A stretch of 64,000 nt of DNA from Minisyncoccota bacterium (GTDB taxonomy: Bacteria; Patescibacteriota; Minisyncoccia; Moranbacterales; GCA-2747515). The notes beneath the pieces were generated by a model. The model was not told where the DNA came from. It made no database searches and worked only from the letters and a program-made list of their open reading frames with translations. Position 1 is the first letter of the stretch. The number at the start of each line of letters is the position of its first letter. Shown piece by piece: positions 2,346 through 25,908 of the stretch. The position numbers were made by a program, and so were the translations under genes. The stretch spans positions 10,336-74,335 of the forward strand of contig CALDDM010000005.1 in NCBI GenBank assembly GCA_937936355.1. The letters are read 5' to 3'.

Positions 2346-3776
2346 TCACCCTCGTAATCCAAAAATATTTTTTACGAGATTTTTTTTACGTGCACTATAA
2401 CTTTTTGCACGGAACTGATCTGCACAGTTCCTTAGCCCATAGCTGTATGTTGGATATGCATGAATTGTATCAGAAAGCTTTGTTATAGAAATATTGTTTT
2501 GCATTGCAAGCGCAATTTCATTGATCATTTCGCCTGCTGGTCCACCCACAATCGTAGCTCCTACAATCAAGCCTTTCCGATTTGTGATTATGCGGAAGAA
2601 ACCCTCCTGGGCAACGTCTGTGATCGCACGATCTACAAAATCATACCCTTTGTCAAATACATAATGAGACTTAGGATCAAACACATTGTCCTGCGTGGAG
2701 ATTCCAATTGAAGCAACCTCCGGAGCCGTGAACGTCGCTCGAGGGATAACCTTACTCATCTTCGCTGGTATGTGAAAAATGATGTTTGTCAACGCCACCT
2801 TTCCCATATGATTTGCATAGTGTGTAAACTTCCACGGCGTTGCAACATCGCCTACCGCATATATATGCGTGACTGTTGTTTGTGTTTTCTCATTTACTTG
2901 TATTCCCTTTCTCACATCGTACTCTACACCTGCCTTTTCAAGACACAAATTCTCAACATTAGGCTGTCGTCCGACAGCAACAAGAATCTCGTCTGCTATA
3001 ATTTCTTGAGATTTATCTTCAGTATCATTCTTTATTGTGACAACTTTCTTGCCATCGCGCACAAACACTTCGCGTACTTCACTCTTGTAAAAAATATTGA
3101 TGCCATCGGACTTTAGAGACCTGTCAACAATTTCTCCAGCTTCTTTTTCATCACGTCCCAACACAACCTCATCACGCGTAATGATATTTACAGCAACTCC
3201 AAGTCGCGCAAATGCCTGTCCCAACTCACATCCAATTGGCCCACTCCCAATTATTGTAAGGGATTTAAATGTGTCAGCCTCAAAAATTGTACGATTTGTC
3301 TTTGGATTTACGGACGCAAGGCCTTTGATAGGCAGGTCGGCAGGTCGCGCTCCGGTTGCGATTACAATTTTTTTCCCACTAATATTTTTACCATTAACCT
3401 CTACAGTATGAGAGTTCACAAAACGAGCGAAGCCCATTTCAATGTCAACTCCATTTCTCTTGATCTCTTCTGGATCCTCAAATCGATTTTCAATATCTGC
3501 AACCACATTACGAACATGTGCCAGAACAGCGTGCACATCACAATCAGTATCTGACATAGAAGATAAGCCAACTTTTTCTCGTTCATTGCTGGCGTGCGCA
3601 ATATGCGCTGCTTTGATCAGCGCCTTTGACGGGATACATCCATAATGCGTGCAGTCACCCCCGAGCTTCTCTCCCTCTATCAGAATCACTCGCGCGCCAA
3701 TACCTGCAGCTCCGATTGCTGCTGTCAGTCCACCGCCCCCAGCTCCAATCACCACAATGTCATAGTCGTAAGCCAT
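2346..3776 (-). CDS. class-I pyridine nucleotide-disulfide oxidoreductase (Lpd/GR/MerA-like)
   Basis: N-terminal FAD fold VVIGAGGGG, redox-active GGDCTHYGCIPSK (CxxxxC), second Rossmann IIGSGPIGCE and C-terminal dimerisation motif IHAYPT. Substrate cannot be assigned. Confidence 0.8.
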   Translation of the reverse strand: MAYDYDIVVIGAGGGGLTAAIGAAGIGARVILIEGEKLGGDCTHYGCIPSKALIKAAHIAHASNEREKVGLSSMSDTDCDVHAVLAHVRNVVADIENRFEDPEEIKRNGVDIEMGFARFVNSHTVEVNGKNISGKKIVIATGARPADLPIKGLASVNPKTNRTIFEADTFKSLTIIGSGPIGCELGQAFARLGVAVNIITRDEVVLGRDEKEAGEIVDRSLKSDGINIFYKSEVREVFVRDGKKVVTIKNDTEDKSQEIIADEILVAVGRQPNVENLCLEKAGVEYDVRKGIQVNEKTQTTVTHIYAVGDVATPWKFTHYANHMGKVALTNIIFHIPAKMSKVIPRATFTAPEVASIGISTQDNVFDPKSHYVFDKGYDFVDRAITDVAQEGFFRIITNRKGLIVGATIVGGPAGEMINEIALAMQNNISITKLSDTIHAYPTYSYGLRNCADQFRAKSYSARKKNLVKNIFGLRG

Positions 3777-4773: not shown

Positions 4774-5424
4774 TTATTGATCAATTTTTTTACCAATGTA
4801 GCTCAACACTACGAGACCAACGATACCCATGCCAAGTGTGATGGGACTCAGTGCACCCAGACCTTTACCCAGCACAACAAATGCAGCCGTGCCTGGTATC
4901 AGGCCGATAGCTGTGCCTAGGATGTAGTCTTTGGCACGGACACATGTAATGCCAAGTAAATAATTAATAATATTAAATGGAAAGACAGGAATAAGTCTGA
5001 TTGCGATTACAGTCAGCATGCCCTTTTTTGCTATCTTTTGGTCGAATTCCTTCACGCGTGGGTATTTCGGCAGTACCTTGTCACTCAAATATTCACGAAA
5101 TAGGTAGCGACCTATATAAAATGCAGCGACTGCCCCCAAAACATTACCAATCCACGCGATCGCAAGCGCAATGAGAAATTGCCCAAACCCTCCGGTGAAA
5201 ATACTCCCCGTGAGTAGCGTTAGAGGTGCTCCAGGCAAAAGAGTCACCGCACCTATAATTTTTGCACAAACCAGTGCCAGCGCTACAAGGAGCACATTTT
5301 CAGTAGCATTATTCTTTAAAAGGTCCAAGATACCCAATAGAGTCTCCTTATTGATTAATGCGCAGATAATTAGTCCAACCCAAAAAACTGCAGCAACCAC
5401 TTTCCTCATGTCTCTTTTTTGCAT
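4774..5424 (-). CDS. TVP38/TMEM64 family (DedA superfamily) membrane protein
   Basis: 216 aa polytopic. Motif LLPGAPLTLLTGSIFGGFGQF is typical of SNARE-associated/TVP38 proteins. Confidence 0.6.
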   Translation of the reverse strand: MQKRDMRKVVAAVFWVGLIICALINKETLLGILDLLKNNATENVLLVALALVCAKIIGAVTLLPGAPLTLLTGSIFTGGFGQFLIALAIAWIGNVLGAVAAFYIGRYLFREYLSDKVLPKYPRVKEFDQKIAKKGMLTVIAIRLIPVFPFNIINYLLGITCVRAKDYILGTAIGLIPGTAAFVVLGKGLGALSPITLGMGIVGLVVLSYIGKKIDQ

Positions 5425-5428
5425 TTTT

Positions 5429-5878
5429 TTAGCTTAACAAATCTTGTGCCTTTTTTATGCGTCTCGCATATTTTTCTTGGTCTGAGAAATCAATAATCAA
5501 AAAATGCTTAATGGCCTCGATAGCAGCATCATAATCAACGAATCGCGCACCTAGAGAAAGAATATTAGCGTCATTGTGCTCTCGTGCCAACTTTACAATC
5601 TTTATGTCATGACCATAGTACACACATGCACGACTGCCTCGCACTCGATTTGCCGCTATCGCTTCTCCCTGACCCGATCCGCCAAGAATAATGCCACGAC
5701 TACCAGGATTTGCCACAACCGCCTTAGTTGCGGGAACAACAAAGTCAGGATAATCATCTTGCGCCGCGTAAGCATAGGCACCAAAATCTTTCACTTGATG
5801 GTTATTGTCCAAAAGCCACTGCACAATTCTTTCCTTAAGCTCAAAGCCCGCATGGTCAGAACCAATATATATTTTCAT
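5429..5878 (-). CDS. rpiB: ribose-5-phosphate isomerase B
   Basis: MKIYIGSDHAGFELKE N-terminus and GIILGGSGQGEAIAANR are typical of RpiB/LacAB. Confidence 0.85.
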   Translation of the reverse strand: MKIYIGSDHAGFELKERIVQWLLDNNHQVKDFGAYAYAAQDDYPDFVVPATKAVVANPGSRGIILGGSGQGEAIAANRVRGSRACVYYGHDIKIVKLAREHNDANILSLGARFVDYDAAIEAIKHFLIIDFSDQEKYARRIKKAQDLLS

Positions 5879-5912: not shown

Positions 5913-6371
5913 TCAGAGACTCTTTTTCTTCAACAGATATTTTTGATGATATTCCTCTGCAAGATAAAAATCTGAGATTGGCAATATTTCTGTTGCATAG
6001 AATACGCCATCCTTTTGCTCCCCAGCCTCTTTCAAGTCATGCGCGATCCTACGTTGCTCTTGATCCTCATAAAAAATAACGCTTCTGTATTGCGATCCCA
6101 CGTCTGGACCCTGTCGATTGACCTGCCAAGGATCATGCATTTTATAAAATGCATCTATAAGGTACTGCGTTGGCAGTAATGCAGTGTCGTAGAGTACACG
6201 CGCAACCTCCGCATGTCCAGTTTTTCCTGTGCAGACTTGTTCATATGTGGGATGAGCGATCATTCCTCCAGAGTAGCCTACATCTGTTTCTCTAACACCT
6301 TTGATTATCCGTATTTTTTCTTCAATACCCCAAAAGCAACCAGCGCCAAGAACGATTTTTTTTTCACTCAT
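5913..6371 (-). CDS. msrA: peptide-methionine (S)-S-oxide reductase MsrA (cytoplasmic form)
   Basis: GAGCFWGIEE catalytic motif and no signal peptide. The start is taken at the ATG at 6371 (MSEKKIV...), because the longer ORF to 6416 would overlap the upstream gene. Confidence 0.85.
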   Translation of the reverse strand: MSEKKIVLGAGCFWGIEEKIRIIKGVRETDVGYSGGMIAHPTYEQVCTGKTGHAEVARVLYDTALLPTQYLIDAFYKMHDPWQVNRQGPDVGSQYRSVIFYEDQEQRRIAHDLKEAGEQKDGVFYATEILPISDFYLAEEYHQKYLLKKKSL

Positions 6372-6388
6372 AGCAATTACGTAATACC

Positions 6389-7021
6389 TTACTCTTGTAA
6401 CAATTTTGATACCCACTCACTCATCTCTTGATAAGCACCTTCACCGAAATGCGTGTGTCGAATATTACCTTTTTTGTCAATGAGGTAATGTGCAGGCCAA
6501 TAACGATTATTGTAATTTCTCCATGTGGCAAAATCATTGTCCTGCGCGATGGGATATGTAAGGCCATGCCTCAGAACCTCTTTGCGCACATTCTCGATCT
6601 TTCTTTCATAGGCAAACTCTGGCGCATGTAATCCAAGGATCACAAACCCATCATTTCCATACTTCTCATATAAAGCCTGGACATGTGACAAAGTACGAAT
6701 ACAGTTTATGCAGCCATAAGTCCAGAAATCGATCAAAACAACCTCTCCCCTCAGCTCCTCAAGTGACAAAATTGGCTCACTATTTATCCAATTTGTTAAC
6801 CCGATAATTTCTGGCGCCCGTATTTGTGCAGACTGCATTGTATTGTCAACAGATTCCTCTGTGACCGAAGAATTTTCCACACTCTCCGAAGATTCTTCTC
6901 TGGCATCTTGTGCGCCATGGCTACCTTGAATATCTTGATTAGATTTCTCTTGCATAGCTCCATCAGCTGCTGCGCAACCCGAGATTATAATGAGCACTGT
7001 GATGATAAAAATGTTCTTCAT
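6389..7021 (-). CDS. exported thioredoxin-fold lipoprotein (DipZ C-terminal/redoxin-like)
   Basis: Lipobox IISGC after an N-terminal signal. WTYGCINC CxxC thioredoxin-fold motif followed by a redoxin-like region. Confidence 0.7.
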   Translation of the reverse strand: MKNIFIITVLIIISGCAAADGAMQEKSNQDIQGSHGAQDAREESSESVENSSVTEESVDNTMQSAQIRAPEIIGLTNWINSEPILSLEELRGEVVLIDFWTYGCINCIRTLSHVQALYEKYGNDGFVILGLHAPEFAYERKIENVRKEVLRHGLTYPIAQDNDFATWRNYNNRYWPAHYLIDKKGNIRHTHFGEGAYQEMSEWVSKLLQE

Positions 7022-7057
7022 AGAAAAATACTATTACTGCAACTGCACATTACTTTA

Positions 7058-7705
7058 TTAACTCTCTATGAGGTCGAGAAAGTGCTGTTGCGTAATATCC
7101 TGTCCGTGGAGTATTGAGTGCAGTGAACCATCGCGATTAATGAGGGCTTTTGTGTTTGTAAATCGAATGCCATAGTGGCGCGTCACAACATTGTCTTGCA
7201 TGACTAGAGAGAGTGTCGTTGGTCGGTTTTGCAGATATCTTCGCGTTGCCGCCTCAGAGTCAATCCCTATCAAAACAACTTCTACTTGATCGCCGTATTG
7301 CGCCTGTAATGCCTCCATTTTTGGGAGATTGCGACGACAATTCGGACAATGCTCTGCAAAGAAATCAACGATCACAGGCTTTACTTCACGAAAGTCAGAA
7401 AGTGTAAATACCTCTCCCGGACGGTCTAAGTGCGCAAGAGAGAAATCTGGCGCGTAATCAATCAATGGAGCTGCAGGAGTATTCTCAACCTCTACAATCT
7501 CTAGGCGTTCAGGGTTTTCTTGGATGCTATCATCAACGCCAAATCCGTTATTTTCTGTATCAGACACAGGAAGTGGTATTTTTTGGGAAAGATCATTTTT
7601 TTTTGCAGCGTCACTAGACATGACACGATCCCTGCTAATATAAAAACCAAGAGCAACAAAGCAAAGAATTAAAGAGCCAAGAAAGATGAAGATTTTTTTT
7701 CTCAT
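7058..7705 (-). CDS. membrane-anchored TlpA/ResA-like thiol-disulfide oxidoreductase
   Basis: N-terminal TM helix and a thioredoxin fold with FFAEHCPNCRR CxxC motif. Confidence 0.7.
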   Translation of the reverse strand: MRKKIFIFLGSLILCFVALGFYISRDRVMSSDAAKKNDLSQKIPLPVSDTENNGFGVDDSIQENPERLEIVEVENTPAAPLIDYAPDFSLAHLDRPGEVFTLSDFREVKPVIVDFFAEHCPNCRRNLPKMEALQAQYGDQVEVVLIGIDSEAATRRYLQNRPTTLSLVMQDNVVTRHYGIRFTNTKALINRDGSLHSILHGQDITQQHFLDLIES

Positions 7706-7721
7706 GTAATTTTTTCGTTTA

Positions 7722-8372
7722 TTACTCGACCACTAAACCTTCAGGATACTGCAAAGAAAATTCACCAAGAGTGCTAATGTCAAAAGGTAAAAAAGTGAGA
7801 TCTTTAGACAAAGCTTCATCAACAACAAGTTCCTTGCCAGATGCGCTCGCCCAAAACCTACTACCACCTCCTCTACTTTCCAGAACAAGAGCCCCATCCC
7901 ACAAAGCATCAGTCGCCTCAAAATAGACAGATGCTCCGCCAAGAACGCGACTTGCTATCACTGCCGTCTCACATGTCGCACAAAATGCCACAAGTATTGG
8001 CTGTCCACTTATGCTATCGTTGATAACCTCATACCTACTCAACAGATCAAATGAGTAAAAAAGATGGCGTGTGCCAGCAGAAGCAACAATACCTCGCTGT
8101 GAGGACTGTGATTCTGCTTGTGCGACACTGATTCGCGCTGGATAGTCTATAGATGAATCAAGCAAGCCTCCAACCACCTTCTTGCTGAGTTGTTCAGAAA
8201 GAACGGTAGAATCCATTCCACGATCGATCAACACTTGCTCAACGCTCACGTTTTGTGATTGATTAAAAGCAACAGCTAGGCCAAGTAATCCCACAAAAAG
8301 CAAGGCTATTACCCATTTTTTTTTCTGAAATATTTTCCACAGCATAGCAGTGAGCTTATTGAAACCTCGCAA
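7722..8372 (-). CDS. DUF3179-like exported protein (short form)
   Basis: N-terminal TM anchor. ILVAFCATCETAVIASR aligns with the Cys-x-x-Cys core of the neighbouring DUF3179 paralog. Confidence 0.5.
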   Translation of the reverse strand: MRGFNKLTAMLWKIFQKKKWVIALLFVGLLGLAVAFNQSQNVSVEQVLIDRGMDSTVLSEQLSKKVVGGLLDSSIDYPARISVAQAESQSSQRGIVASAGTRHLFYSFDLLSRYEVINDSISGQPILVAFCATCETAVIASRVLGGASVYFEATDALWDGALVLESRGGGSRFWASASGKELVVDEALSKDLTFLPFDISTLGEFSLQYPEGLVVE

Positions 8373-8395
8373 AAGCAGATAGAATCATAATACCA

Positions 8396-9403
8396 TTATT
8401 TATGTAAGTCAGTGTCAGGATGTATACTCACCCACGAGATCCAAAAACTCGGAATTGCTGTAAGCTGTATTTCTTTTACATCTGTTATGTCATAAAATTC
8501 TGCAATGCCCTTGCGAGCATTAAATGTTACACGTAATTTCCGATCGCCAATAACATCCTCAAATGATTGATCTCGCTCTAGAGCACTAACGAGATAAGCC
8601 TTTGACTTTCCACCAACAATCAATCCCAACACAATATCCGTTTTTTCCAAACGATCATCATCACCTGAAAATCGAAATATTGGCTCAATGTTTCTCAGAT
8701 CACCACCATATGGCACACTACTGTACCCAAAGATCTTTTTGTGATTCTCATCCCCTATAAGCACTTCGCCCTCTGGAAAATTTTCTACAAATTTCTTGTA
8801 CTGTGTAATATCAAACCGTACTATATCAAGCTTTTGCCCGGAAGCAGGTCCAACAACAGCCTCACCAAGTGCCTGTGACCACAGTGACTCTGGGTTACCC
8901 CTGTTATACATCAAGAGATTTGACTCCCACAACTTCCCTGATACACCAAATTCCTGCTTTGTGCCATCCACTTCTGGATCAAAAACAATACCTGTAAAAC
9001 ACAGTGGGCAATATGTAACAAGTAACGACTCACCTTCAAAGGTATCATTGACTATTTCATGAGAAACAAGAATCTGGTAGGGGTAAAATCGGGCTTTTCC
9101 ATTGCGCTCGATCACAATGCCATCACCATCTGCATTCATCCAATCTGGCACATCACTCACGAGCGCGTATGCAGGATTGTCAATTGGCTTGATGCCGTCT
9201 TTTGGTACGCCACCACTCAAAATCTCACTCAAGTCTATTGATGCGCGAACACCATCTTGCTCCAGAAGGTTATTTACTGAATTTGGTTCGTTGATATATA
9301 CATCGCCAGACACATCAGATTCAAGACTAATAGGCTCCGAAATAGTACTCGAACATCCCGATAATGTTGCAGTCACAAGCCCTACAAAAAATAATCCCCT
9401 CAT
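8396..9403 (-). CDS. DUF3179 family lipoprotein
   Basis: Lipobox LSGC. DGIKPIDNP...LLVTYCPLCFTGIVF...VSGKLWESNLLMYD-like pattern is characteristic of DUF3179. Confidence 0.65.
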   Translation of the reverse strand: MRGLFFVGLVTATLSGCSSTISEPISLESDVSGDVYINEPNSVNNLLEQDGVRASIDLSEILSGGVPKDGIKPIDNPAYALVSDVPDWMNADGDGIVIERNGKARFYPYQILVSHEIVNDTFEGESLLVTYCPLCFTGIVFDPEVDGTKQEFGVSGKLWESNLLMYNRGNPESLWSQALGEAVVGPASGQKLDIVRFDITQYKKFVENFPEGEVLIGDENHKKIFGYSSVPYGGDLRNIEPIFRFSGDDDRLEKTDIVLGLIVGGKSKAYLVSALERDQSFEDVIGDRKLRVTFNARKGIAEFYDITDVKEIQLTAIPSFWISWVSIHPDTDLHK

Positions 9404-9417
9404 AATCTCTATGCAAA

Positions 9418-10344
9418 CTAGTTACCAAACTTCTTGACATATTCATAAGCACTCAGCGTTGCCTTGATCGCATCCCCGACAGCAATATTATTCTGCTTAT
9501 ACAGCTCATCAGTTACGTCGCCAGCAGCATATATACCGTTCATACTTGTGGAAAATGTACGATGATCAACAATGATTTCTTCTCGATCATTTAGATCAAC
9601 AAGCCCTTTACACAACGAACTATTTGGAACAGTTCCAATCTCTACAAAAACACCCTGTACCGCCAGTTCTTTTTCTTCATTCGCTTCTTTGTCTTCGTAC
9701 AGCAAAGACTCTACCATTGCACTACCAGAGATCTTGAGAGTATTCGTCTTATAGAGAATCTCAACTTTTCCTGAATCACGAACAATTTTTTGTGTAATGG
9801 GATCTCCACGCAGTTCATCACGACGCGCTAGCAAATATACTTTCTTTGCATACGGTAGTAAATCAACAACACTCTCAAGTCCGCTATTGCCACCACCCAC
9901 AACTGCAACATCCTTATCACGAAAAAATGGTGCATCGCATGTTGCGCAGTACGCCACTCCCTTGCCATTGAAATCATCTTCTCCAGGCACGCCCAACTTT
10001 CGATGACGACCACCAGTGGTGACTATAACTGTTTTTGTTTTGTAGACATCTTTTTTTGTTTTCACCAAAAACATATCACCATCACGTTCAATGCTAGTCA
10101 CTGTATCTTGTAAAGATAAACTTATATCTTCTTTATATGACTCCAGGTGATCCTTGAGTTTCTTGGCTAACTCAGGTCCTGGTATTAGGATATCGCCAAT
10201 CCAATTTGCAATACCATCGGATACAACGCTTTGCCCACCTATCTGGTCCGCCACGAGCATCGCTTTCATTTGTTTGCGAGCAGCATACACGCCTGCAGCA
10301 ACTGCTGCTGGACCACCACCAACAATGATTGTGTCAAAAACCAT
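9418..10344 (-). CDS. trxB: thioredoxin-disulfide reductase
   Basis: IVGGGPAA FAD motif, redox-active CATCDAPFF, VVGGGNSG NADPH motif and GIYAAGDV. Confidence 0.85.
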   Translation of the reverse strand: MVFDTIIVGGGPAAVAAGVYAARKQMKAMLVADQIGGQSVVSDGIANWIGDILIPGPELAKKLKDHLESYKEDISLSLQDTVTSIERDGDMFLVKTKKDVYKTKTVIVTTGGRHRKLGVPGEDDFNGKGVAYCATCDAPFFRDKDVAVVGGGNSGLESVVDLLPYAKKVYLLARRDELRGDPITQKIVRDSGKVEILYKTNTLKISGSAMVESLLYEDKEANEEKELAVQGVFVEIGTVPNSSLCKGLVDLNDREEIIVDHRTFSTSMNGIYAAGDVTDELYKQNNIAVGDAIKATLSAYEYVKKFGN

Positions 10345-10389
10345 TCTAATTTTTATTACGTATTATGTTTCTAAACTACAAAGAGATGC

Positions 10390-10635
10390 TTAAAGTGAGA
10401 GAAGTTTTGTTAGTTTTTCTTGGTCAAAACCGACGACCACCTCTTCTGTTCCATCCTCTCTTTCAATCATGGTTACGGGCACACCCATTTGACCAGTCTT
10501 TTCAACCATTTGTGTCGCAGCTTCCTGACTCTCGGATATATCGATCTCCTTAAACTCCACTCCCTTTTCGAGAAGGAATTCTTTCTCCATTTTGCAATAA
10601 CCACATGATGGTGTTGAGTATACTGTTATATTCAT
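10390..10635 (-). CDS. NrdH/glutaredoxin-like small redoxin
   Basis: 81 aa with the STPSCGYCK CxxC motif near the N-terminus and a GVPVT motif. Confidence 0.75.
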   Translation of the reverse strand: MNITVYSTPSCGYCKMEKEFLLEKGVEFKEIDISESQEAATQMVEKTGQMGVPVTMIEREDGTEEVVVGFDQEKLTKLLSL

Positions 10636-10662: not shown

Positions 10663-10704
10663 ATTATATAAGAATGTCTTCTATGATGTCAAGTAGACTT
10701 TACA
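10663..10704 (-). promoter_or_regulatory. sigma70-like promoter of the nrdH-trxB operon with upstream TGTAAAG element
   Basis: The minus strand reads TGTAAAG-TCTA-CTTGACA, then 18 nt, then TATAAT. On the plus strand the 18-bp element is 10687-10704, TGTCAAG-TAGA-CTTTACA. Confidence 0.5.
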
Positions 10705-10799: not shown

Positions 10800-10874
10800 G
10801 TACCCGTAGCTCAGTTGGATTAGAGCGTTTGGTTTCGGCCCAAAAGGTCGCAGGTTCGAGTCCTGCCGGGTACA
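10800..10874 (+). tRNA. tRNA-Arg (anticodon TCG)
   Basis: Hand-folded cloverleaf. Acceptor GTACCCG/CGGGTAC, D arm GCTC...GAGC, anticodon stem TTTGG/CCAAA with loop TTTCGGC, T arm GCAGG-TTCGAGT-CCTGC. No encoded CCA. Confidence 0.85.
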
Positions 10875-10988
10875 CAAGAACACGCCTCTCATTTTTTGAG
10901 GGCGTAGATAGCGCGCTCTATGGATGGCCTCGTCTCCCAGTATCTCACCAAGAGATTTTCACCTTAGAGCTCCTTGCTCTGGGATTTT

Positions 10989-11441
10989 TTACTCCTGAGA
11001 TTTTTGCTCGAATGGATTTTCTACCTCCGAGCTACTAGCAGTATTTTGTGGAGATGTATCTGCTTGACTCTCCTGCGCTGATTCACTAGAAATCACATCG
11101 TCTCCTTGCTTGCCACCAAAGAATATATCTTTCACTTGCGAACCTTTCTCAGAAAATTTTATCTCTCTTTGCTTAATCGTAAAGACAGCTTGTTCAAATT
11201 TATCTTCATTAAACTTGACTTTTGCCCTACGAACTTCCGCCTCCTGCTTCGCAGTCTCTGAGTCTTCATCTAGCTTATAGAGATTTTCATACCATATAGA
11301 AAATGCGTAGATAAGAGCAAGGAGAGCAAGAAGAGCTGCTACATATCGAAATATTTTTATCCACAACTTCCATACAATATCCATGACACCATGGATGCCT
11401 CTCCCCTTGAAATTCTCGATTATTTTTCGTATCTGTTGCAT
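10989..11441 (-). CDS. hypothetical single-pass membrane protein (last gene of the pilus cluster)
   Basis: One TM helix (YVAALLALLALIYAF) followed by a charged, low-complexity C-terminus. No recognisable family. Confidence 0.4.
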   Translation of the reverse strand: MQQIRKIIENFKGRGIHGVMDIVWKLWIKIFRYVAALLALLALIYAFSIWYENLYKLDEDSETAKQEAEVRRAKVKFNEDKFEQAVFTIKQREIKFSEKGSQVKDIFFGGKQGDDVISSESAQESQADTSPQNTASSSEVENPFEQKSQE

Positions 11442-11468
11442 AATAGTATACCTTTTCTTTTACAATCT

Positions 11469-12239
11469 TTACGCCTCTGACTCATCTTCATTCTTATCAT
11501 CTGACTCTGAATCTGAATCTGAGAAGTCATCCTTCTTGCTCTCAAGCAAGTTATCTAGGTAAATGGCAATCGTTAATTCTGAATCAATCAAATTTGTTCT
11601 GTCATCAGCATCTGCCTCCGTGTTCTGACGAATATCCCCAAACCTTCGCGCCTCTGCACTCGTACGCGTATCATCTCTTGCTGTCAGCGCTATTTGGGTA
11701 ATATCATTCTCGTAGTCAAAATTTTCGAGCTTTATGATAAAATCCATAAGATTCTGATACGTACCAGTCATTTGCATCACAAGAACTATGCTATAGTCCT
11801 CATCGACAGGATTTATTCTCCTTTCTTGTGGTTCATTCTCATCTGACTTTTCATCAGACTTTTTCTTTGGCTTTGGCTTTGGTGACTTCTTTTTTAGTGT
11901 GTATGTGAATGCAGAATGACCTGTTGAGCGAGCTATCTCCTCGATCCTTGTAAATACCTGGACTTTTTGGTTTGCATCATCTGCCAAGAGCACGTCCATA
12001 CTATCTCTTTGTGCCACTATGGTATCTTGCTGGCGGCGCAAATCTACCACGGACTGCAAGAAGTCTAAATTAATCTCTTGATCAATACGAATGCTCCGAG
12101 CTTCATTAACTTTCTCCTGCGTCATTGAAACAACAAAGCGAGCGCCAAATATAGCAAGTGGCACAAAAATGAATATGAATGCCCCTGCGGTAACTGCGAT
12201 TAGATTTTTTTTGATTATATCCATCATAGAATAAGACAC
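11469..12239 (-). CDS. PilO-like pilus assembly protein
   Basis: N-terminal TM, a coiled-coil segment, and a position directly after pilM-pilN with a 16-nt overlap. Contains an inserted K/E-rich linker. Confidence 0.5.
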   Translation of the reverse strand: MSYSMMDIIKKNLIAVTAGAFIFIFVPLAIFGARFVVSMTQEKVNEARSIRIDQEINLDFLQSVVDLRRQQDTIVAQRDSMDVLLADDANQKVQVFTRIEEIARSTGHSAFTYTLKKKSPKPKPKKKSDEKSDENEPQERRINPVDEDYSIVLVMQMTGTYQNLMDFIIKLENFDYENDITQIALTARDDTRTSAEARRFGDIRQNTEADADDRTNLIDSELTIAIYLDNLLESKKDDFSDSDSESDDKNEDESEA

Positions 12240-12793
12240 GTTTCCGGATTAACGGTGAATGTCATAATAAAATTTGCATCACTTTGCTGTACAAGATATT
12301 CATCCGGTATTTGAACATCGCTAAAGCACAGCTGGTCATCCCTACTAGCTTTGAGCATTTTATCTTTTAATACTACGAGTGCACTCGATGTGTCTGCTAC
12401 GCCAGTCAGAGTCACGACATAGTTCTGACTTGATAGTTTTTGTACGCGTATCTCAGGTGAAATCACATCATTTAGTACTGAGAGCATTGTACTCCAATGC
12501 ACACCTTTTGACTGCAGCATTTCAACCACTTTCACATGATCATTTGTCTTGGCAAAAAGTGCGTGCAATTTTAAAACTTCTCCATATTCTTCACGCTCAA
12601 TGATTTCGCGATTATTGTCATCATATACAGCAACTTGCTGTCTCACTAGCATGTAGATCGTTATCAAAACGCTCAGCAAAACCAAGGCGATAAAAAAAAT
12701 GATTAATTGTTGATTAATGAGCAAGTGAAAAATTTTCTGCTGGCGCAAAAGATTTTTATACTGTTCCGGAAGTAAATTTAATGTAATTTTCAT
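12224..12793 (-). CDS. pilN: PilN-like fimbrial assembly protein
   Basis: MKITLNLLPEQYK N-terminus (the INLLP motif of PilN), a single TM, and a position after pilM. Confidence 0.65.
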   Translation of the reverse strand: MKITLNLLPEQYKNLLRQQKIFHLLINQQLIIFFIALVLLSVLITIYMLVRQQVAVYDDNNREIIEREEYGEVLKLHALFAKTNDHVKVVEMLQSKGVHWSTMLSVLNDVISPEIRVQKLSSQNYVVTLTGVADTSSALVVLKDKMLKASRDDQLCFSDVQIPDEYLVQQSDANFIMTFTVNPETCLIL

Positions 12794-12798
12794 TTATA

Positions 12799-13857
12799 CT
12801 AATCTTGCGTCATGGATAAACCTATTGCTGTAGCGTACTGAATTGATGCCTCTTTGTTGATCGGAGGAAGATCTTTAAATTGTGCATTTGTCCATGGATC
12901 GCCTAAACGCACATCCATCCCAATACTGCGAGAGAGATAAGGAATTAGACCTTTTGTCTTTGATCCGCCTCCACACAAGATGATTTCGTCAACTGCCTGT
13001 GAATATCGTAAACCCGTGAGATAGAAATTGATAGACTTGCGAATCTCTTGCGCAAAACTGTCAACGATCGGCTTAACAGATTGAAAAATATGATCGTTTT
13101 TAAGAGCAGATCCAATTCCGTGCTCAATCTTCACTTTCTCAGCTTCCGCATGCGAAAGATTCATTGTTTTTGCGATCGCATCTGTAATCGACTCTGAGCT
13201 TAACGGTATACTGGAAGTGAAAACAGGAATGCCCCTTGTAACGACCAGAAAACTGGTTCTCCGATCACCGATATCTACGATCATTGTAGTTCGTTGATGA
13301 TCGAGAGATAACAAACTCCTAACCTGCGAAAGAGACTCAATCTCAAACCCGTGCACCTTATAATTCGCATCTTCTAAAACAGCCATAAATTGATCAACTA
13401 CACCGCGTGCAACTGCGACCACAAGCACACTCATCTTACCAGCATCTCCCTGCAGATGCTCAGGCAAAATCTGCCAATCATAATAGACCTGGTCGATCGT
13501 CATGGGAATATTTGCTTCCATCTCCCATTTGATTGCTTCACCAGCCTCTTCACTTGTCATTTGGGGAATTGAGATAATACGCAAAAATGCTTTCGTTTCA
13601 GGCAATGAGCAAACAACATGCTTTGTGGTAATGTTGGCTCGTAGACAAGCTGCTTGAATTGCGCTACCAACAGCCTCTGCGTTCAAAATGCCTCCATCAG
13701 CGACGGAACCTTTTGGCAATGACTCAGCACCTGCTAGGACATTGTGCATGTATTTTCCACGCACGTCTACCTGCACAACCTTAATCGATAAATCACTTAT
13801 ATCCAAACCAAAAAAATCTGGGTTCGGATCAAGGAATTTTTTCTGTAGTAATGACAT
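12799..13857 (-). CDS. pilM: type IV pilus assembly protein PilM (actin-like ATPase fold)
   Basis: 352 aa. FFGLDISDLSIKVVQV N-terminus and IILCGGGSKTKGL are typical of PilM/FtsA-like proteins. Confidence 0.85.
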   Translation of the reverse strand: MSLLQKKFLDPNPDFFGLDISDLSIKVVQVDVRGKYMHNVLAGAESLPKGSVADGGILNAEAVGSAIQAACLRANITTKHVVCSLPETKAFLRIISIPQMTSEEAGEAIKWEMEANIPMTIDQVYYDWQILPEHLQGDAGKMSVLVVAVARGVVDQFMAVLEDANYKVHGFEIESLSQVRSLLSLDHQRTTMIVDIGDRRTSFLVVTRGIPVFTSSIPLSSESITDAIAKTMNLSHAEAEKVKIEHGIGSALKNDHIFQSVKPIVDSFAQEIRKSINFYLTGLRYSQAVDEIILCGGGSKTKGLIPYLSRSIGMDVRLGDPWTNAQFKDLPPINKEASIQYATAIGLSMTQD

Positions 13858-14020
13858 TATTTTCTTTTTGAGGCTCAGTCACGGTAAAAATTGGCATTAC
13901 CATTTATCATTTCTGTAGAAAAAATGACCTTTCTTTTGCGCAAATTATACTAAGCCTTACAGTATATTTTACATTACAACTTCTATATTGCAAAATCAAG
14001 AATCCTTAATCGCTCACATA

Positions 14021-15457
14021 CTACTCCTTTTCTTGCCATTGATCGATCACGTATGAGCTGCCTGTCGGAAAAAACGGGGGCGCATTGAAAAGAAAGTTGC
14101 TATCGTAGTTTATCTCCACAGATGTTGTGTCTTCAAACCCAAAATCTTGATACGTGGCTACGGCGCCTAGGATCTCAACTGCAGCAAGTGTGTTACCGTA
14201 TGCACTGCGGCCAACGCGTCCTGTTTGTGCAAGTAGTGCAGCGTGTATATTTAACACACCATCCCCTCCCAAAGCAGGGTCTGCAATGACCTCCACGTTA
14301 TTCTCAGCCGCTATACCCAAGATTGTTCCCGATACTTGATCTTCGTAAACAATGTCGCCATTGATATAGACATCATGGTTTCGTCCATCGCCATTGTGGT
14401 GGGCAGCGATTGTCACTTGCTTTCCGCTGTCTATGACACCCTCCACCCAAATGTCATTGCGTACATAGATTGCATTGGTGTCAGCAAGGGTCAACGTCTC
14501 CTCAAATTCATAGTCCTTATTCTTATAACTTATCTCCTTGGTTGTGTTGTTGTACTTTTTTACCCAGTATAGGTCGGCGGTACCGTCATCTTGAAAAATC
14601 AGATGCCAACCTTGGCCCCCAGCTTTTGTTGGCAAATTAAATTGCGCGTTAGATGCTGACTGAATCTGAGTAAATGCTACAACAACACTATTAAAGTCCT
14701 GCGTAGGTACTGGAAAGGCCTTGCCTCCGACAAAAACATCACCTTCCACGCCATTAGTCCATACCCCATCCTTCGTCACACCTCCATAGTCGTAGCTAGA
14801 AACAGAACTTGATGACAATCCATTGATCATACCCTCTGCACGTAAGCCGTTATTTGCATGCACACCACCATCTACACTCGTTCCCGATGCAATCTCAATA
14901 TCAGAGTGCGCAAGAATAGCAAACTCACTCCATGGCGGTCGTCGCAGACGCATGCTCACCGTACGTTTCTGATTTGGTTTTTTTTGTGTCCATCCTGTTG
15001 ACTCGACGAATGCTGTGGTAGTGCCGGTAGTTGGCAAAACAACACAAACACTATATGTTCCTTGAACACCATTTGCATCATAGTTTTCCTCATACCTCCC
15101 AGCATCATCCGCTGTATCACAAATACCATCAGGACCCGCACTCCCACGCGGAGGATTTACAGGATCATCCCAAAAGTCTGCAATCTGCTCGGCAGTCTTG
15201 CCATCTACATGATGAGCGATATACCAGCGATATGCATACAAACCAGACTCTGCAATCTGCAGCGCTCCTTCTCGTGGTTGAGCAGATAAACTGTAGCGAA
15301 TGCTCGAGGCGACAAATGTAATTAGACCACTAAAGATAATTGCAACCACAGCCAAAACAGCTAGAGCATAGACAAGTCCTCCACCGTTAGCTTTTTTTTG
15401 AATAGTTGTTTGCAATTTCATAGTCTCAATTTTATTGCTAAGACGGTGCTTGGCCAA
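14021..15457 (-). CDS. large pilus-associated protein (PilX-like, N-terminal hydrophobic helix without Glu5)
   Basis: GGGLVYALAVLAVVAIIFSGLITFV pilin-like helix, then about 430 aa of beta-rich sequence. Overlaps the upstream minor pilin gene by 20 nt. Confidence 0.45.
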   Translation of the reverse strand: MAKHRLSNKIETMKLQTTIQKKANGGGLVYALAVLAVVAIIFSGLITFVASSIRYSLSAQPREGALQIAESGLYAYRWYIAHHVDGKTAEQIADFWDDPVNPPRGSAGPDGICDTADDAGRYEENYDANGVQGTYSVCVVLPTTGTTTAFVESTGWTQKKPNQKRTVSMRLRRPPWSEFAILAHSDIEIASGTSVDGGVHANNGLRAEGMINGLSSSSVSSYDYGGVTKDGVWTNGVEGDVFVGGKAFPVPTQDFNSVVVAFTQIQSASNAQFNLPTKAGGQGWHLIFQDDGTADLYWVKKYNNTTKEISYKNKDYEFEETLTLADTNAIYVRNDIWVEGVIDSGKQVTIAAHHNGDGRNHDVYINGDIVYEDQVSGTILGIAAENNVEVIADPALGGDGVLNIHAALLAQTGRVGRSAYGNTLAAVEILGAVATYQDFGFEDTTSVEINYDSNFLFNAPPFFPTGSSYVIDQWQEKE

Positions 15458-16061
15458 AGTCAGATAAATTACGTATAACGGATTTTGACTTTATACGCAC
15501 ATTGTTTGGAGCCTTAATCTGATCAACATTTACAAAAAGTAATATCTCAACGAGAGTGATCATATTTGTACTGCCCCCATAGGCAAGCAGATTATTTGAC
15601 CTGTCGTAATAGGCAAAAATTGGCTCTCCAGCTCCGTCGTTTACAACATAATTTGCAACATTTGAAAGAACCTCATCGTTATCTGGATCATACGTCAAAG
15701 GCGAGCCGGACGGCTCCGTGACACCCCTCTTGAATTCATCATTTGTATCTACAAAGTATCGCAAACGCTCAACTACATCGTCACCATCATAATCTGAGTA
15801 GAAGATAATCTCATACTCGCTCGCACTCTCCAATGGGAAAGAGCCATCCTCTGCATGTGTCGCCTTACGCAGTTCCCGCACAACTTCGCGTACACCCTTA
15901 TCTGCAACACGTGATGCAATACCTGTCTCTATTGTAAAACTATTTGCGATCAGTACACGTGAAATCAGATATGTAAAACCAATCATCACAACAGAAAGGA
16001 TGAGTATTGTTATGAGCGTCTCAACGAGAGACACTCCACGTAATTTTGTTTTAAATCCCAT
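15438..16061 (-). CDS. prepilin-type N-terminal cleavage/methylation domain protein (minor pilin)
   Basis: KLRG|VSLVETLITILILSVV is a class-III signal with Glu5. Confidence 0.65.
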   Translation of the reverse strand: MGFKTKLRGVSLVETLITILILSVVMIGFTYLISRVLIANSFTIETGIASRVADKGVREVVRELRKATHAEDGSFPLESASEYEIIFYSDYDGDDVVERLRYFVDTNDEFKRGVTEPSGSPLTYDPDNDEVLSNVANYVVNDGAGEPIFAYYDRSNNLLAYGGSTNMITLVEILLFVNVDQIKAPNNVRIKSKSVIRNLSDFGQAPS

Positions 16062-16075
16062 TAATTTATGTCATT

Positions 16076-17518
16076 TTATGAGCCAACGAGTGTCACATCC
16101 AACTGCTCAAGACCACTGACGACCACCGAGGAGATATAGTCAGTATATCCATCACCACGAACGCGTATGTCATACTCCTGACCTGCCACCAATGATTCTA
16201 TTGCATTTTCTGGGAAGTAAACTGTGCCGTATTTATCTGTCTGCACTTCGACACTATACCCAAGACTTGCGTTTTGCAGACGCACATAAGCGTCAGGAAC
16301 AACTGCACCTGTGTCAGAATCAGTTACTGTAATGAAGACACTGTCTACAGCGGACTCCATGAGCACTATATTACAGTCAAAGACAGCGCCCTCATTAACC
16401 TCTGTTGCGTACCGATTAACGTCATCACCAGGCAATAGCCTCCAAAATACATTTGTGCCATCTGCATGTTCGATTGTGTAGAAACCAGAGCTCTCTACGT
16501 ATCCCGCCACAGAATCCATATCCACTTGTCCTGATGCATCAGTTGTTGTACTCAATAATGATAGAGAGCCATTTATATATACAGGATCTCCGTCTGTTGT
16601 TGAGCCGATGATACGACCACCTTCCAGATTAAATGCGACATTGCCAATGCTGTTACAAAATGGATCTGTTGAATTAAATTCCAAGTCAGGGATGAGCCCA
16701 GTTTCTAGCGTTAGTGATGTTACAGTACCAGCAATCGCGGTAAGATCGACATAACTCGGGTAAAATGATGAGATTGGATAATCTGGATATGTTTGTACAA
16801 CTTCATATCCATCACTACCAGAGCCAACTGTTACTCTGTAGATTTTTTCGCCAACTGGAACTGACGCAAAAATTACGTTACCGAATGCGTCTGTCGTACT
16901 TGTACCTGAATAATCTGGTGCAGTCACCCCATTTGTATCGTTTAGTGCAACAGTGATCCCTGATACTGGACCATTCTCGTCGAGTACATTTATCGATACT
17001 ACGCCGTCACTTACACCCAACTCATTACCGCTAGGTGGCACGAAGTACGAAGACAAAACAACACTTTGCCTCTCATTTGAGACATCACTGAGACCTTCTC
17101 CCCACAAGACAGTAATAATCACATTTTTGTAGTCTTGTGGATAAAGATCTGTAGGGTGCACCCCATCTTCCGCATCATCTATATAATAAATTTCTCGTAG
17201 AATTCTATATGTAGCTCCTCCGACAACCGTCGTAGAATCATACAATATCGTTCCAGGCCCGACAGATCCGGTTGGCGGAGTGGGCGTCAAAGCAAGAGAC
17301 AGGTCGACGTATGGTGTATTTCTAAAGACCTCTAGCTCTTGGTTTGCAATTTCGACAGCTGCAAGCCTTTGTTTTGAATCAATAATATTTACAATAACCA
17401 TACCGTAAAGCTGGTAAAAGCTCAGGGTCATCACAGAAAAAATAACCAAAACCACAAGCGCCTCTACGAAAGTAAAGCCCTTCATCGATGGTTTGTTTTT
17501 TTTCAATAATGTATTCAT
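16076..17518 (-). CDS. giant prepilin-type protein with two carboxypeptidase-regulatory-like beta-sandwich segments
   Basis: MKG|FTFVEALVVLVIFSVMTL class-III signal. Segments INVLDENGPVSGITVAL...DAFGNVIF and ITVTDSDTGAVVPDAYVRL...DKYGTVYF resemble CarboxypepD_reg repeats. Confidence 0.7.
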   Translation of the reverse strand: MNTLLKKNKPSMKGFTFVEALVVLVIFSVMTLSFYQLYGMVIVNIIDSKQRLAAVEIANQELEVFRNTPYVDLSLALTPTPPTGSVGPGTILYDSTTVVGGATYRILREIYYIDDAEDGVHPTDLYPQDYKNVIITVLWGEGLSDVSNERQSVVLSSYFVPPSGNELGVSDGVVSINVLDENGPVSGITVALNDTNGVTAPDYSGTSTTDAFGNVIFASVPVGEKIYRVTVGSGSDGYEVVQTYPDYPISSFYPSYVDLTAIAGTVTSLTLETGLIPDLEFNSTDPFCNSIGNVAFNLEGGRIIGSTTDGDPVYINGSLSLLSTTTDASGQVDMDSVAGYVESSGFYTIEHADGTNVFWRLLPGDDVNRYATEVNEGAVFDCNIVLMESAVDSVFITVTDSDTGAVVPDAYVRLQNASLGYSVEVQTDKYGTVYFPENAIESLVAGQEYDIRVRGDGYTDYISSVVVSGLEQLDVTLVGS

Positions 17519-17557
17519 ATACTTATTCTACAATATACTTTTGAATATATTGCACTT

Positions 17558-18781
17558 TTATTGAATATTTTCCAACACACTGTACATTGGCTGCAACATA
17601 GCAATTGCAAAAAATCCAACACCCGTACCAATGACAATCATAAGAACTGGCTCAATGATTGAACTCATGTTCTTTGTGATCTGGGACACCTCAGCCTCGT
17701 AGAACTCTGCAATCTTCATGAGCATTTGTTCGGTCTGACCAGTTTCTTCACCGACCTTAACCATCTGTGCAAGGATTACCGGAAACAGCTTTGGGTACTC
17801 CTCAATTACGACAGACATCTCAACGCCTTTCTGAATTTTATCACGGCCACTGTGGATCGCCTCTTTATAGTATTCATTGGCGAGAGTATCTGCCACGATA
17901 TCCAATGCTCCGATCACACTCACACCACTACGTAAGAGCGAGCTGTAGATTCGTGCAAATCGTGCAGAATTAACCTTGATCACAATATTCTTAATAGCTG
18001 GGAGATGCAGTACCAAGAAGCTCAATGCACGTTTCCCCATCTTTGTTGTCAGGAAAAACTTCAATCCAAATCCGCCAAAGACAAAGAGGATTGCAATAAT
18101 CACACTATGTTCCCGCAGCGCATCTGACATTGAGATAAGAATCAACGTCATCTTTGGAAGTGTCACGTCCATATCAACAAAAACACCTGTGATTTGTGGC
18201 AAGATATATGTCAGCATCAAAACACCTACAGCTGTCATAGCAAAAACGATTACCGCAGGATAGATCATTGCACCACGCACTTTTGACCGCAAATCGTTTT
18301 CTTTCTCTATTTGTATCGTCAGAATGCCAAGTGATTCCTCCAAGGATCCACCAACCTCACCAACACGTACCATATTTACAAAAAGATCATCGAATGCCGA
18401 TGGGTGCTTTGCAAGAGCATCACTGACTGACATACCCTTTTGCACATCAAGGTACGCTGTTTGAAGAATTTTCTGAAATTTTTTGTCAGTTGTTTGCAAT
18501 GAAAGATTATTTAGAGCTCTACCAACCGACAACCCTGAAGAGATCATCACCGCGAGGTTACGTGTAAAGAACAGTTTCTCTTTGAGAGGAATTTTTGAAA
18601 ATCGATCCATGATGCTGATCGACTTCTTCTTTGTGGTCTCTTGATCGACCATCCGCATTGACGTCACCAAAAAACCTTCGCTGCGCAACTGCGCGGCAAG
18701 TTCTTGCTCACTACTAGCAATCACCTCACCACTCTTTGGTGATCCATCTGCTGCTTTGGCTGTAAAGAGATACTTCGGCAT
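17558..18781 (-). CDS. pilC: type IV pilus platform protein PilC (GspF family)
   Basis: 407 aa with duplicated T2SSF domains and three TM segments. Follows pilB. Confidence 0.9.
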   Translation of the reverse strand: MPKYLFTAKAADGSPKSGEVIASSEQELAAQLRSEGFLVTSMRMVDQETTKKKSISIMDRFSKIPLKEKLFFTRNLAVMISSGLSVGRALNNLSLQTTDKKFQKILQTAYLDVQKGMSVSDALAKHPSAFDDLFVNMVRVGEVGGSLEESLGILTIQIEKENDLRSKVRGAMIYPAVIVFAMTAVGVLMLTYILPQITGVFVDMDVTLPKMTLILISMSDALREHSVIIAILFVFGGFGLKFFLTTKMGKRALSFLVLHLPAIKNIVIKVNSARFARIYSSLLRSGVSVIGALDIVADTLANEYYKEAIHSGRDKIQKGVEMSVVIEEYPKLFPVILAQMVKVGEETGQTEQMLMKIAEFYEAEVSQITKNMSSIIEPVLMIVIGTGVGFFAIAMLQPMYSVLENIQ

Positions 18782-18813
18782 ACTATAATTCTGGAAACTT
18801 AATTTATGGATCC

Positions 18814-22147: not shown

Positions 22148-22237
22148 TTAGATAACGATCAAGAGAATGGCAGTGAGCACAAATACTGCAAGTACTCCGC
22201 GCAAAAAGTGAGCCAAGAACCATAGCACACTCCTCAC
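22148..22237 (-). CDS. candidate 29-aa hydrophobic micropeptide
   Basis: Its GTG overlaps the TGA of the upstream gene (tcGTGA). The product (M)RSVLWFLAHFLRGVLAVFVLTAILLIVI is a single TM helix. The stop is 5 nt before the terminator hairpin. It is below the ORF-track size cutoff. Confidence 0.3.
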   Translation of the reverse strand: MRSVLWFLAHFLRGVLAVFVLTAILLIVI

Positions 22238-25873: not shown

Positions 25874-25908
25874 AGACCCTTCCAATTGAAGGGTCTTAGT
25901 TTTTTTTG
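25874..25908. terminator. bidirectional terminator hairpin
   Basis: AGACCCTTC-caatt-GAAGGGTCT, flanked by AAAAG on one side and TAGTTTTTTTT on the other. It abuts the stop codon of the 25896 gene. Confidence 0.6.

Follow-up and report, generated by a model that had tools for sequence, protein, structure and literature searches.

We describe a thiol-redox operon encoding two proteins of the DUF3179 family (PF11376) in a 64 kb stretch of DNA from a Minisyncoccota bacterium (contig CALDDM010000005.1, positions 10,336 to 74,335; hereafter the window), and set it against about 170 other loci as well as naturally occurring gene fusions. The family is large, has no assigned function, is present in bacteria and archaea, and includes some selenoproteins, and these comparisons now give it a testable job: the best explanation of the whole, and one that we consider probable, is that DUF3179 is the end-point of an electron relay leading across the membrane from CcdA to TlpA-like proteins. 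We consider it likely that DUF3179 interacts directly with a TlpA-like protein, as its redox partner or client, and whether it works as a reductase or instead handles metals is close to an even call. The pathway type, a reducing CcdA-TlpA system, is already known; the new element is a structurally unclassified family of clients. The original prediction, made from the sequence of this DNA, had placed DUF3179 as a component or substrate of an envelope disulfide and methionine-sulfoxide repair pathway; the envelope thiol-redox part of that proposal is upheld by synteny in 79 loci of the Candidate Phyla Radiation (CPR), by a reciprocal search with CcdA, and by the fusions.

The operon comprises eight consecutive minus-strand genes with gaps of 14–45 nt, an arrangement that the original prediction had described and that is confirmed by the open reading frame (ORF) listing, with families assigned using Pfam and NCBIfam. 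In order of transcription these encode a cytoplasmic glutaredoxin-like (Grx-like) redoxin of 81 aa with a CGYC motif (10390-10635; Pfam Glutaredoxin, 5.7e-16), a 308 aa flavoprotein with CATC that resembles low-molecular-weight thioredoxin reductases (TrxR) and the C-terminal part of AhpF (9418-10344; Pyr_redox_2, 2.9e-42), a 335 aa DUF3179 lipoprotein with CPLC, referred to here as L-type (8396-9403; PF11376, 9e-66), and a second DUF3179 protein with CATC, referred to as S-type, which is 207 aa long from its ATG (7722-8345; PF11376, 9e-16) or 216 aa if a TTG at 8372 is used. These are followed by a 215 aa TlpA/ResA-like thioredoxin-fold protein with CPNC (7058-7705; AhpC-TSA, Redoxin and Thioredoxin_8, with the ResA subfamily at 1.3e-14), a 210 aa thioredoxin-fold lipoprotein with CINC that is similar to the C-terminal domain of DipZ (6389-7021; Redoxin and Thioredoxin_8), MsrA (152 aa from an ATG at 6371, thus 5913-6371, within an ORF spanning 5913-6416; PMSR, 3.8e-54), and the ribose-5-phosphate isomerase RpiB (5429-5878; LacAB_rpiB, 1.1e-40). 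Read from the sequence, the successive gaps are 45, 14, 23, 16, 36, 17, and 34 nt, where the 23 nt gap becomes 50 nt if the S-type gene starts at its ATG, and the 17 nt gap counts MsrA from the ATG at 6371. The four proteins predicted to be exported or anchored with CxxC motifs are as first proposed, with lipoboxes (LSGC in the L-type and ISGC in the CINC protein, both read from the sequence) and transmembrane (TM) anchors on the S-type and CPNC proteins.

A sigma-70-type promoter (TTGACA-18 nt-TATAAT, minus strand, 10663-10692) with 12 of 12 consensus matches lies 27 nt before the first operon gene and is the best-scoring site in an 8 kb scan. No credible internal terminator is present in the operon, and an Rfam scan of the window reports three tRNAs only, with no leader RNA before the operon. 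The redox locus thus reads as one predicted transcription unit, which carries a putative thiol-reducing pathway from its cytoplasmic input through an extracytoplasmic relay to its terminal acceptors. Beyond rpiB the same-strand run continues with genes for a VTT/DedA-family membrane protein (4774-5424; VTT_dom, 3.7e-25; 4 nt gap after rpiB), a K+ channel, a class-I disulfide reductase, Rpe, and glucose-6-phosphate dehydrogenase (G6PD). The order of 13 genes is identical in one relative, whose DUF3179 is 63% identical.

Conserved synteny provides the first line of evidence. A scan of species-representative genomes gave 80 CPR loci, in which ORFs were labelled by jackhmmer profiles whose seeds came from the window and one Pfam-labelled relative; counts are over 79 loci. 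Within four genes of DUF3179 we find a TlpA-like gene in 62 loci, ArsR/HTH_5 in 52, CcdA in 46, a Grx-like gene in 42, a DsbA-like gene in 25, and a TrxB-like gene in 18, and genes sharing a strand most often run in the order ArsR-(Grx)-DUF3179-TlpA-CcdA. Absence of DUF3179-redoxin synteny elsewhere had been named as a point that would count against the original prediction; a thiol-redox gene is present within three genes of DUF3179 in 77 of the 79 loci. When genes no more than three positions away are contrasted with those at least five away in the same loci, enrichment is evident for TlpA (odds ratio [OR] 12, p 2e-20), ArsR (OR 25), Grx (OR 25), DsbA (OR 9), and CcdA (OR 4.2, p 1e-6), and the clustering of thiol-redox genes with DUF3179 is far above chance. 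TrxB is not significantly enriched (OR 1.8); the gene noted as trxB does encode a member of the expected superfamily, but its association with DUF3179 is lineage-specific. The proposed link to methionine-sulfoxide repair does not hold up, as an Msr gene occurs near DUF3179 in only 0–1 of the 79 loci, the operon MsrA is cytoplasmic, and the exported MsrA-MsrB is 24 kb away. A term search of a paper on CPR protein families (PMC6744442) finds an oxidising DsbA/MdbA-VKOR pair and no module of TlpA, CcdA, and DUF3179.

The association was also examined from the side of CcdA, using a profile from an alignment (A4) of CPR CcdA proteins from 34 loci run against metagenome contigs. Among loci with a CPR-type CcdA (at least 55% identity, with enough upstream flank), seven of eight carry DUF3179, as does a further locus (L133), compared with none of the roughly 58 loci whose CcdA is of a more distant type. 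The A4 CcdA proteins are 55–77% identical to the first sequence of the alignment, with 70% mean column identity, and the adjacent DUF3179 proteins are only about 40–45% identical.

Of all the evidence that DUF3179 may work directly with TlpA-like proteins and CcdA, the fusions are the strongest, following Rosetta-stone logic. Pfam was run on 20 proteins (DUF3179 family representatives and one cluster member), 17 of which are DUF3179 proteins of at least 459 aa, and a TlpA-type Redoxin domain is fused in eight of the 17. It is N-terminal to DUF3179 in six (P0132, P0206, P0221, P0127, P0145, and P0269) and C-terminal in P0196 and in P0242, the latter being a cluster of eight sequences from several sources. 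P0269 (853 aa) combines DsbD_TM, Redoxin, and DUF3179, and P0247 (437 aa), identified with our own CcdA hidden Markov model (HMM) outside the Pfam run, joins a CcdA-type domain to a single-repeat DUF3179. The CxxC is kept in each domain of every fusion. P0127 adjoins a fibrillarin gene on an archaeal contig. Further fusions are to SLH, fn3, and Ig domains and, with the lipoboxes and TM anchors, support a surface location for DUF3179. Some family members are giants with fn3/Ig or TlpA domains; P0125 (1587 aa) contains at least three complete DUF3179 domains and P0132 (1004 aa) contains two.

The genes could also lie together simply as a generic island of redox or stress functions in which DUF3179 receives no electrons directly; its CxxC would then be a structural disulfide or zinc site. 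Small CPR genomes do cluster many redox genes (DsbA-like, DUF3105, DoxX, and pentose-phosphate genes), and the annotated plasmid contexts outside the CPR are looser, if still redox or metal flavoured: Thiothrix has a DsbH/DsbD_N thioredoxin protein, DUF4395, and a GDCCVxC selenoprotein nearby, Pseudanabaena has a thioredoxin and a peroxiredoxin-like protein, and the haloarchaea have redoxin-domain proteins, class-I disulfide reductases, and HTH regulators. However, TlpA-like and CcdA domains have been fused to DUF3179 several times independently and in both orders, and the reciprocal specificity for one CcdA clade is hard to explain without direct interaction; two conserved Cys are also too few for Cys4 or Cys3His zinc, and a structural disulfide would not pair with a reducing pathway. 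We regard the generic island as highly improbable.

Both proteins assigned to DUF3179 in the original prediction match PF11376 above its gathering threshold of 27 bits, but the second is only a single-repeat half-domain. The L-type scores 222.7 bits over positions 1-241 of the 292-position profile, and the S-type scores 58.6 bits over positions 6-147 only, corresponding to one repeat. The core motif, YP...[H]ExxND...CPLC(T), appears as YP, HEIVND, and CPLC in the L-type and as YS, YEVIND, and CATC in the S-type, with Tyr in place of His. Among about 6,000 scored homologs of the L-type the nearest are all Patescibacteria, and a half-domain query alone matches 1,237 clusters at 50% identity. C132, P133, L134, C135, H115, E116, N119, Y107, and P108 are invariant in 51 CPR homologs. 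In 146 diverse representatives at 50% identity, CxxC is present in 141 motif-bearing domains (about 96%), and the exceptions are CxxT, CxxG, CxxA, CxxW, SxxC, and HxxS (once each) and SxxT (twice); the position of H115 is His in about 114, Arg in nine, and Lys in three. A haloarchaeal homolog, on a Natronorubrum plasmid, has CPLT.

Reviews of the prokaryotic selenoproteome give the DUF3179 motif as UxxC/T (PMC9312934, PMC13188914), and the passages retrieved from them list the family without function, partners, or context. The selenoprotein members, from marine metagenomes, belong to the same PF11376 and have the motif at the same position, the first residue being the presumed nucleophile and the second Cys or Thr; unlike these, the window proteins are Cys forms. 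In the literature searched, DUF3179 and PF11376 appear only in selenoproteome tables and gene lists. Structural zinc at the Cys pair had been recognised as a finding that would speak against the original prediction. A four-ligand site does not fit the conservation pattern, in which there are two conserved Cys, the second replaceable by Thr, Gly, or Ala, and a lone His replaceable by Arg, Lys, or Tyr. Because the first position can be selenocysteine (Sec) and the second can be Thr, the pattern argues for the Cys pair acting as a redox nucleophile rather than as a structural zinc site.

The AlphaFold2 model of the L-type (pLDDT 89, pTM 0.87) is all-beta with short helices. Its secondary-structure pattern recurs, with 94-142 corresponding to 257-306, and many family members align to the query in two stretches, the second of which keeps YP...ND and has no Cys; the domain is therefore internally duplicated, the Cys pair lying in repeat 1 only. 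At E<=1e-3 Foldseek returns nothing from the PDB for either the L-type or the S-type model, a PDB profile search with DUF3179 finds no relative, and no NCBIfam model matches the window DUF3179 proteins or two plasmid homologs. Faint recurrent Foldseek matches raised an analogy to Rieske-type proteins (target TM-score about 0.46–0.48, probability at most 0.41), which we set aside because DUF3179 conserves no more than two Cys and one His.

The S-type model consists of a TM helix (residues 2-27) and one repeat (pLDDT 78). S-type proteins are rare, with 4–5 clusters among 1.84 billion representatives in an exhaustive HMMER search, which was needed because a word-index search recovered only the query itself. 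The ortholog at locus L001 is 37% identical and retains CxxCETAVIA, compared with 62% for the L-types of the same two genomes, showing that the S-type diverges faster. At L094 the gene order is S-TlpA-TlpA-RpiB-VTT followed by a pyridine-nucleotide disulfide oxidoreductase, and at L096 the S-type alone lies between TrxB and TlpA, which suggests that it can fill the DUF3179 slot by itself.

The operon encodes two exported or anchored thioredoxin-fold proteins as candidate donors to DUF3179, one with CPNC and a TM anchor and one with CINC and a lipobox, both of which match Redoxin, AhpC-TSA, and Thioredoxin_8 and have ResA and StoA as their best NCBIfam matches. The nearest solved structures to the CPNC protein are thioredoxins, DsbE, and ResA. 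For the CINC protein the DipZ-C-like designation made at the outset is well founded: the best PDB match is the C-terminal domain of Mycobacterium tuberculosis DipZ (2hyx, E 3e-46; also 5cyy). In M. tuberculosis DipZ this domain is fused to a CcdA-like membrane domain. That no CcdA or DsbD is visible in the window was observed previously and is substantiated here, in that Pfam finds no DsbD_TM, VKOR, or DsbB among nine multi-TM ORFs, and the possibility of a divergent CcdA hidden in the window was dismissed when a CPR CcdA HMM built from 66 sequences, run unfiltered (--max) in all six frames, reached no better than E 0.87, which is noise; the loci of the closest relatives likewise gave noise only. 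The VTT/DedA gene, also present at L001, L007, L008, and L094, is co-conserved in the sublineage and was considered as a possible thiol-based stand-in for CcdA, an idea that was rejected because no Cys is common to its orthologs. The sole exported Msr in the window is a TM-anchored MsrA-MsrB fusion of 412 aa (minus strand, 34854-36092; PMSR 8e-57, SelR 4e-41) with an N-terminal hydrophobic segment and of the PilB/MsrAB2 type, and it is a plausible second surface client of the two TlpA-like proteins.

Several observations weigh against DUF3179 as the end-point of a CcdA-TlpA relay. Neither the window nor the loci of its nearest relatives (L001, L002, L006-L008, and L094) contain CcdA or DsbD, so the relay is incomplete as seen at the window locus, and membership of a full CcdA/DsbD-TlpA pathway is not demonstrated for it. 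The 79 loci are all from the CPR and are phylogenetically related, and ORF calling was crude. In the L-type model, CPLC lies in a beta-hairpin turn between strands 125-132 and 137-142, reminiscent of a zinc knuckle, and not at the N-terminus of a helix, where thioredoxin-fold oxidoreductases have their CxxC. Lastly, the neighbourhoods have a metal flavour, with ArsR/SmtB regulators and a MerT-like membrane protein with a CC motif in the CPR, genes for an HTH-YHS protein, a multicopper oxidase, and a low-molecular-weight protein tyrosine phosphatase at L004, and, outside the CPR, ChrA, a P-type ATPase, and metal transporters in Deinococcus and azurin and NosL in haloarchaea.

ArsR, MerT-like, YHS, and copper-oxidase neighbours, along with the hairpin-knuckle geometry, make a Sco-like role with soft metals the main rival. 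DUF3179 would use its CxxC to bind or chaperone a metalloid or soft metal, such as Cu(I), Hg(II), or As(III), as part of an ArsR-controlled metal-stress module in which the TlpA-like protein and CcdA keep the ligand Cys reduced, as TlpA does for ScoI and CoxB. The ArsR/SmtB regulators directly upstream of DUF3179 in 52 of the 79 loci (L006-L085) have two Cys that are at least 90% conserved, in a CV.D helix and in R.Gq..CY, and lack the His-rich alpha-5 site, such that they look like thiol- or soft-metal-sensing members of the family; the MerT-like protein follows CcdA in several loci, a GDCCVxC selenoprotein and an arsenate reductase are found beside non-CPR homologs, and the UxxC selenoproteins tabulated in PMC9312934 include metal binders. 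On the other hand, the second Cys can be Thr, Gly, Ala, or Trp with the first kept, and Sec forms include UxxT, which a bidentate site would not tolerate; H115 is not universal, since about 15% of members have Arg, Lys, or Tyr there; the ArsR family also has members that sense thiol or persulfide stress (BigR matched at 4e-6); and the window has no ArsR at all. We consider the soft-metal role unlikely, and because Sec and CxxT variants exist we favour a reductase role. As a separate observation, the MerT-like protein (122–150 aa, with an LCCFAP motif) follows CcdA at L009, L010, L014, L028, and L068 (another example is at L004, 10949-11332), and its resemblance to MerT is weak (NCBIfam 1.6e-5, Pfam 0.003).

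Alternatively, DUF3179 could be a non-redox envelope enzyme, a hydrolase or transferase using C132 as nucleophile together with H115 and E116, with TlpA and CcdA only shielding the Cys, as DsbG/DsbD do for Escherichia coli L,D-transpeptidases. The conserved C132, H115, E116, and N119 are suggestive of Cys-His-acid catalytic sets, the first Cys is better conserved than the second, and synteny and fusions are accounted for equally well. Nevertheless, Sec at the first Cys is typical of redox catalysts, and we know of no hydrolase with a Sec substitution of its catalytic Cys; moreover, a sizeable minority of members, the window S-type among them, have Arg, Lys, or Tyr in place of the His, and Foldseek showed no structural likeness to any known Cys hydrolase fold. 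A hydrolase or transferase seems to us quite improbable.

The cytoplasmic end of the putative pathway is formed by the two genes that lead the operon, encoding a small dithiol carrier (Grx-like, CGYC) and an NAD(P)H-dependent reductase (TrxB-like, CATC). The former had been called NrdH-like, an identity that we discard: it scores 51 bits against TIGR02194 (NrdH; cutoff 85.75), and its best NCBIfam match is the YruB family, with a higher score of 83.6 bits against a cutoff of 88.55. No ribonucleotide reductase gene is present among the neighbours examined. The flavoprotein scores 320 bits for the AhpF C-terminal part and 289 bits for TrxR (TIGR01292; cutoff 343), both under the equivalog cutoffs, aligns over its full length to TrxR, and has AhpF (1hyu, 1fl2) and TrxRs as its nearest solved structures, from which we assign it to the low-molecular-weight TrxR/AhpF-C superfamily. 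The operon MsrA, which has GCFWG at residues 11-15, has no signal peptide and scores 172.8 bits with TIGR00401, above the cutoff.

Genes of the pentose-phosphate pathway lie on the operon strand, with G6PD and Rpe at 180-2324 and RpiB within the operon; sequence was also read for about 1.6 kb past the window start and 0.8 kb past its end, and a gene for 6-phosphogluconate dehydrogenase (6PGD) is located just outside the window start. Transaldolase, phosphoglucose isomerase, and a G6PD-6PGD fusion recur beside DUF3179 in other CPR loci (e.g. L091, 19314-20228), which points to a genomic coupling between the thiol system and its NADPH supply. The class-I pyridine-nucleotide disulfide oxidoreductase of the window (476 aa, minus strand, 2346-3776; Pyr_redox_2 and Pyr_redox_dim) is of the PRK06370 type (475 bits). 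MerA was considered for this protein and rejected, as it scores 361 bits against the TIGR02053 cutoff of 454, lacks the C-terminal Cys pair, and has the active site CTHYGC. The VTT/DedA gene and the PRK06370-type reductase are directly adjacent at L007 and L094, with only the K+ channel gene between them in the window, and further reductases of this type lie near DUF3179 at other CPR loci as well as on plasmids of haloarchaea.

We envisage the following scheme, the evidence for which is genomic throughout. NADPH from the same-strand pentose-phosphate genes would reduce the TrxB-like flavoprotein, which would pass electrons to the Grx-like redoxin and so to the cytoplasmic MsrA and to a CcdA-type membrane transporter; the transporter, which is beside DUF3179 in most relatives, would be encoded outside the 64 kb window, elsewhere in the genome. 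CcdA would then reduce the two surface thioredoxin-fold proteins (CPNC and CINC), and these in turn the CxxC in both DUF3179 proteins, the lipoprotein and its anchored single-repeat paralog. DUF3179 itself may be a thiol-dependent reductase, selenol-dependent in some organisms, acting on an oxidised cell-surface substrate, with C132 as the putative nucleophile and C135 as the resolving residue.

More broadly, it is possible, if somewhat doubtful, that DUF3179 is a new fold family of extracytoplasmic thiol- or selenol-dependent reductases built on a duplicated beta-rich repeat with CxxC, UxxC, or CxxT in the first copy, serving as the principal terminal acceptor of the CcdA-TlpA relay in cytochrome-less Patescibacteria and occurring in fused forms elsewhere, including in archaea. 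In that case the window lineage would be a variant that has lost the adjacent ArsR and CcdA, with an added S-type paralog and a DipZ-type redoxin, and tied to TrxB and NADPH genes. To our knowledge CPR bacteria mostly lack c-type cytochromes, and the reason for which they retain a highly conserved CcdA has therefore had no obvious answer so far; DUF3179 is the best candidate. As the family has no relative of solved fold, determining its structure and activity would establish a new class of redox proteins of the envelope, and an operon with no CcdA nearby raises the question of the route by which electrons reach the surface in the window lineage.

Additional features of the window and the related loci are as follows. 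Directly upstream of the operon, beyond a tRNA-Arg gene on the opposite strand (10800-10875) that sits between the operon promoter and the pilus genes, is a type IV pilus cluster (10989-20538, minus strand) encoding PilM-like, type II secretion system E and F, and N-methyl pilin-like proteins. A run of membrane-protein genes includes four multi-TM ORFs of 242–322 aa with no Pfam match (22234-23163, 23931-24815, 25057-25785, and 25896-26864). A homolog of the lipoprotein intramolecular transacylase Lit (38518-39147, plus strand) fits with lipoprotein processing in this organism. A TM-anchored DsbA/MdbA-like thioredoxin (46194-46928, minus strand; CxxC at residue 97) adjoins a divergently oriented pyridine-nucleotide disulfide oxidoreductase-like gene (44958-46124, plus strand), with no VKOR or DsbB among the membrane ORFs tested. 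Further recurrent neighbours of DUF3179 in the CPR loci are DUF3105 (14 loci, mostly before the DsbA-like gene), DoxX (nine), a dual-specificity/PTP-type phosphatase (nine), and an unassigned TM protein of 120–150 aa (eight); examples of recurrent neighbours are at L018 8880-9509, L029 970-1350, and L010 11201-11662.

The window system shares features with several characterised pathways. The CINC protein is homologous to the C-terminal domain of M. tuberculosis DipZ, but is a free lipoprotein, with no CcdA in the window. The Streptococcus pneumoniae CcdA1/2-Etrx1/2-MsrAB2 system likewise has two thioredoxin-family proteins at the surface, including one lipoprotein, and the window resembles it further in having an Msr in the operon, an anchored MsrA-MsrB in the genome, and a Gram-positive-like envelope, whereas here the operon MsrA is cytoplasmic, the anchored MsrAB is 24 kb distant, and the conserved partner is DUF3179 rather than Msr. 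Bradyrhizobium TlpA-ScoI/CoxB and Caulobacter ScsB-TlpA-PprX, in which a TlpA-type reductase feeds a metal chaperone (ScoI) or an envelope peroxiredoxin (PprX), are the two models weighed above for DUF3179, which differs from these clients in not having a thioredoxin fold, in having no solved structural relative, and in the location of its CxxC in a beta-hairpin. The CcdA-ResA and CcdA-StoA systems of Bacillus subtilis differ in that the client is apocytochrome c or a spore protein rather than DUF3179, the donor is a classical thioredoxin rather than an 81 aa Grx-like protein, and the window has two TlpA-like proteins, two DUF3179 paralogs, and no CcdA; but they share with the window operon a thioredoxin-type cytoplasmic donor, an anchored or lipoprotein CxxC reductase, and a dedicated CxxC client, with CcdA adjacent in the related CPR loci.

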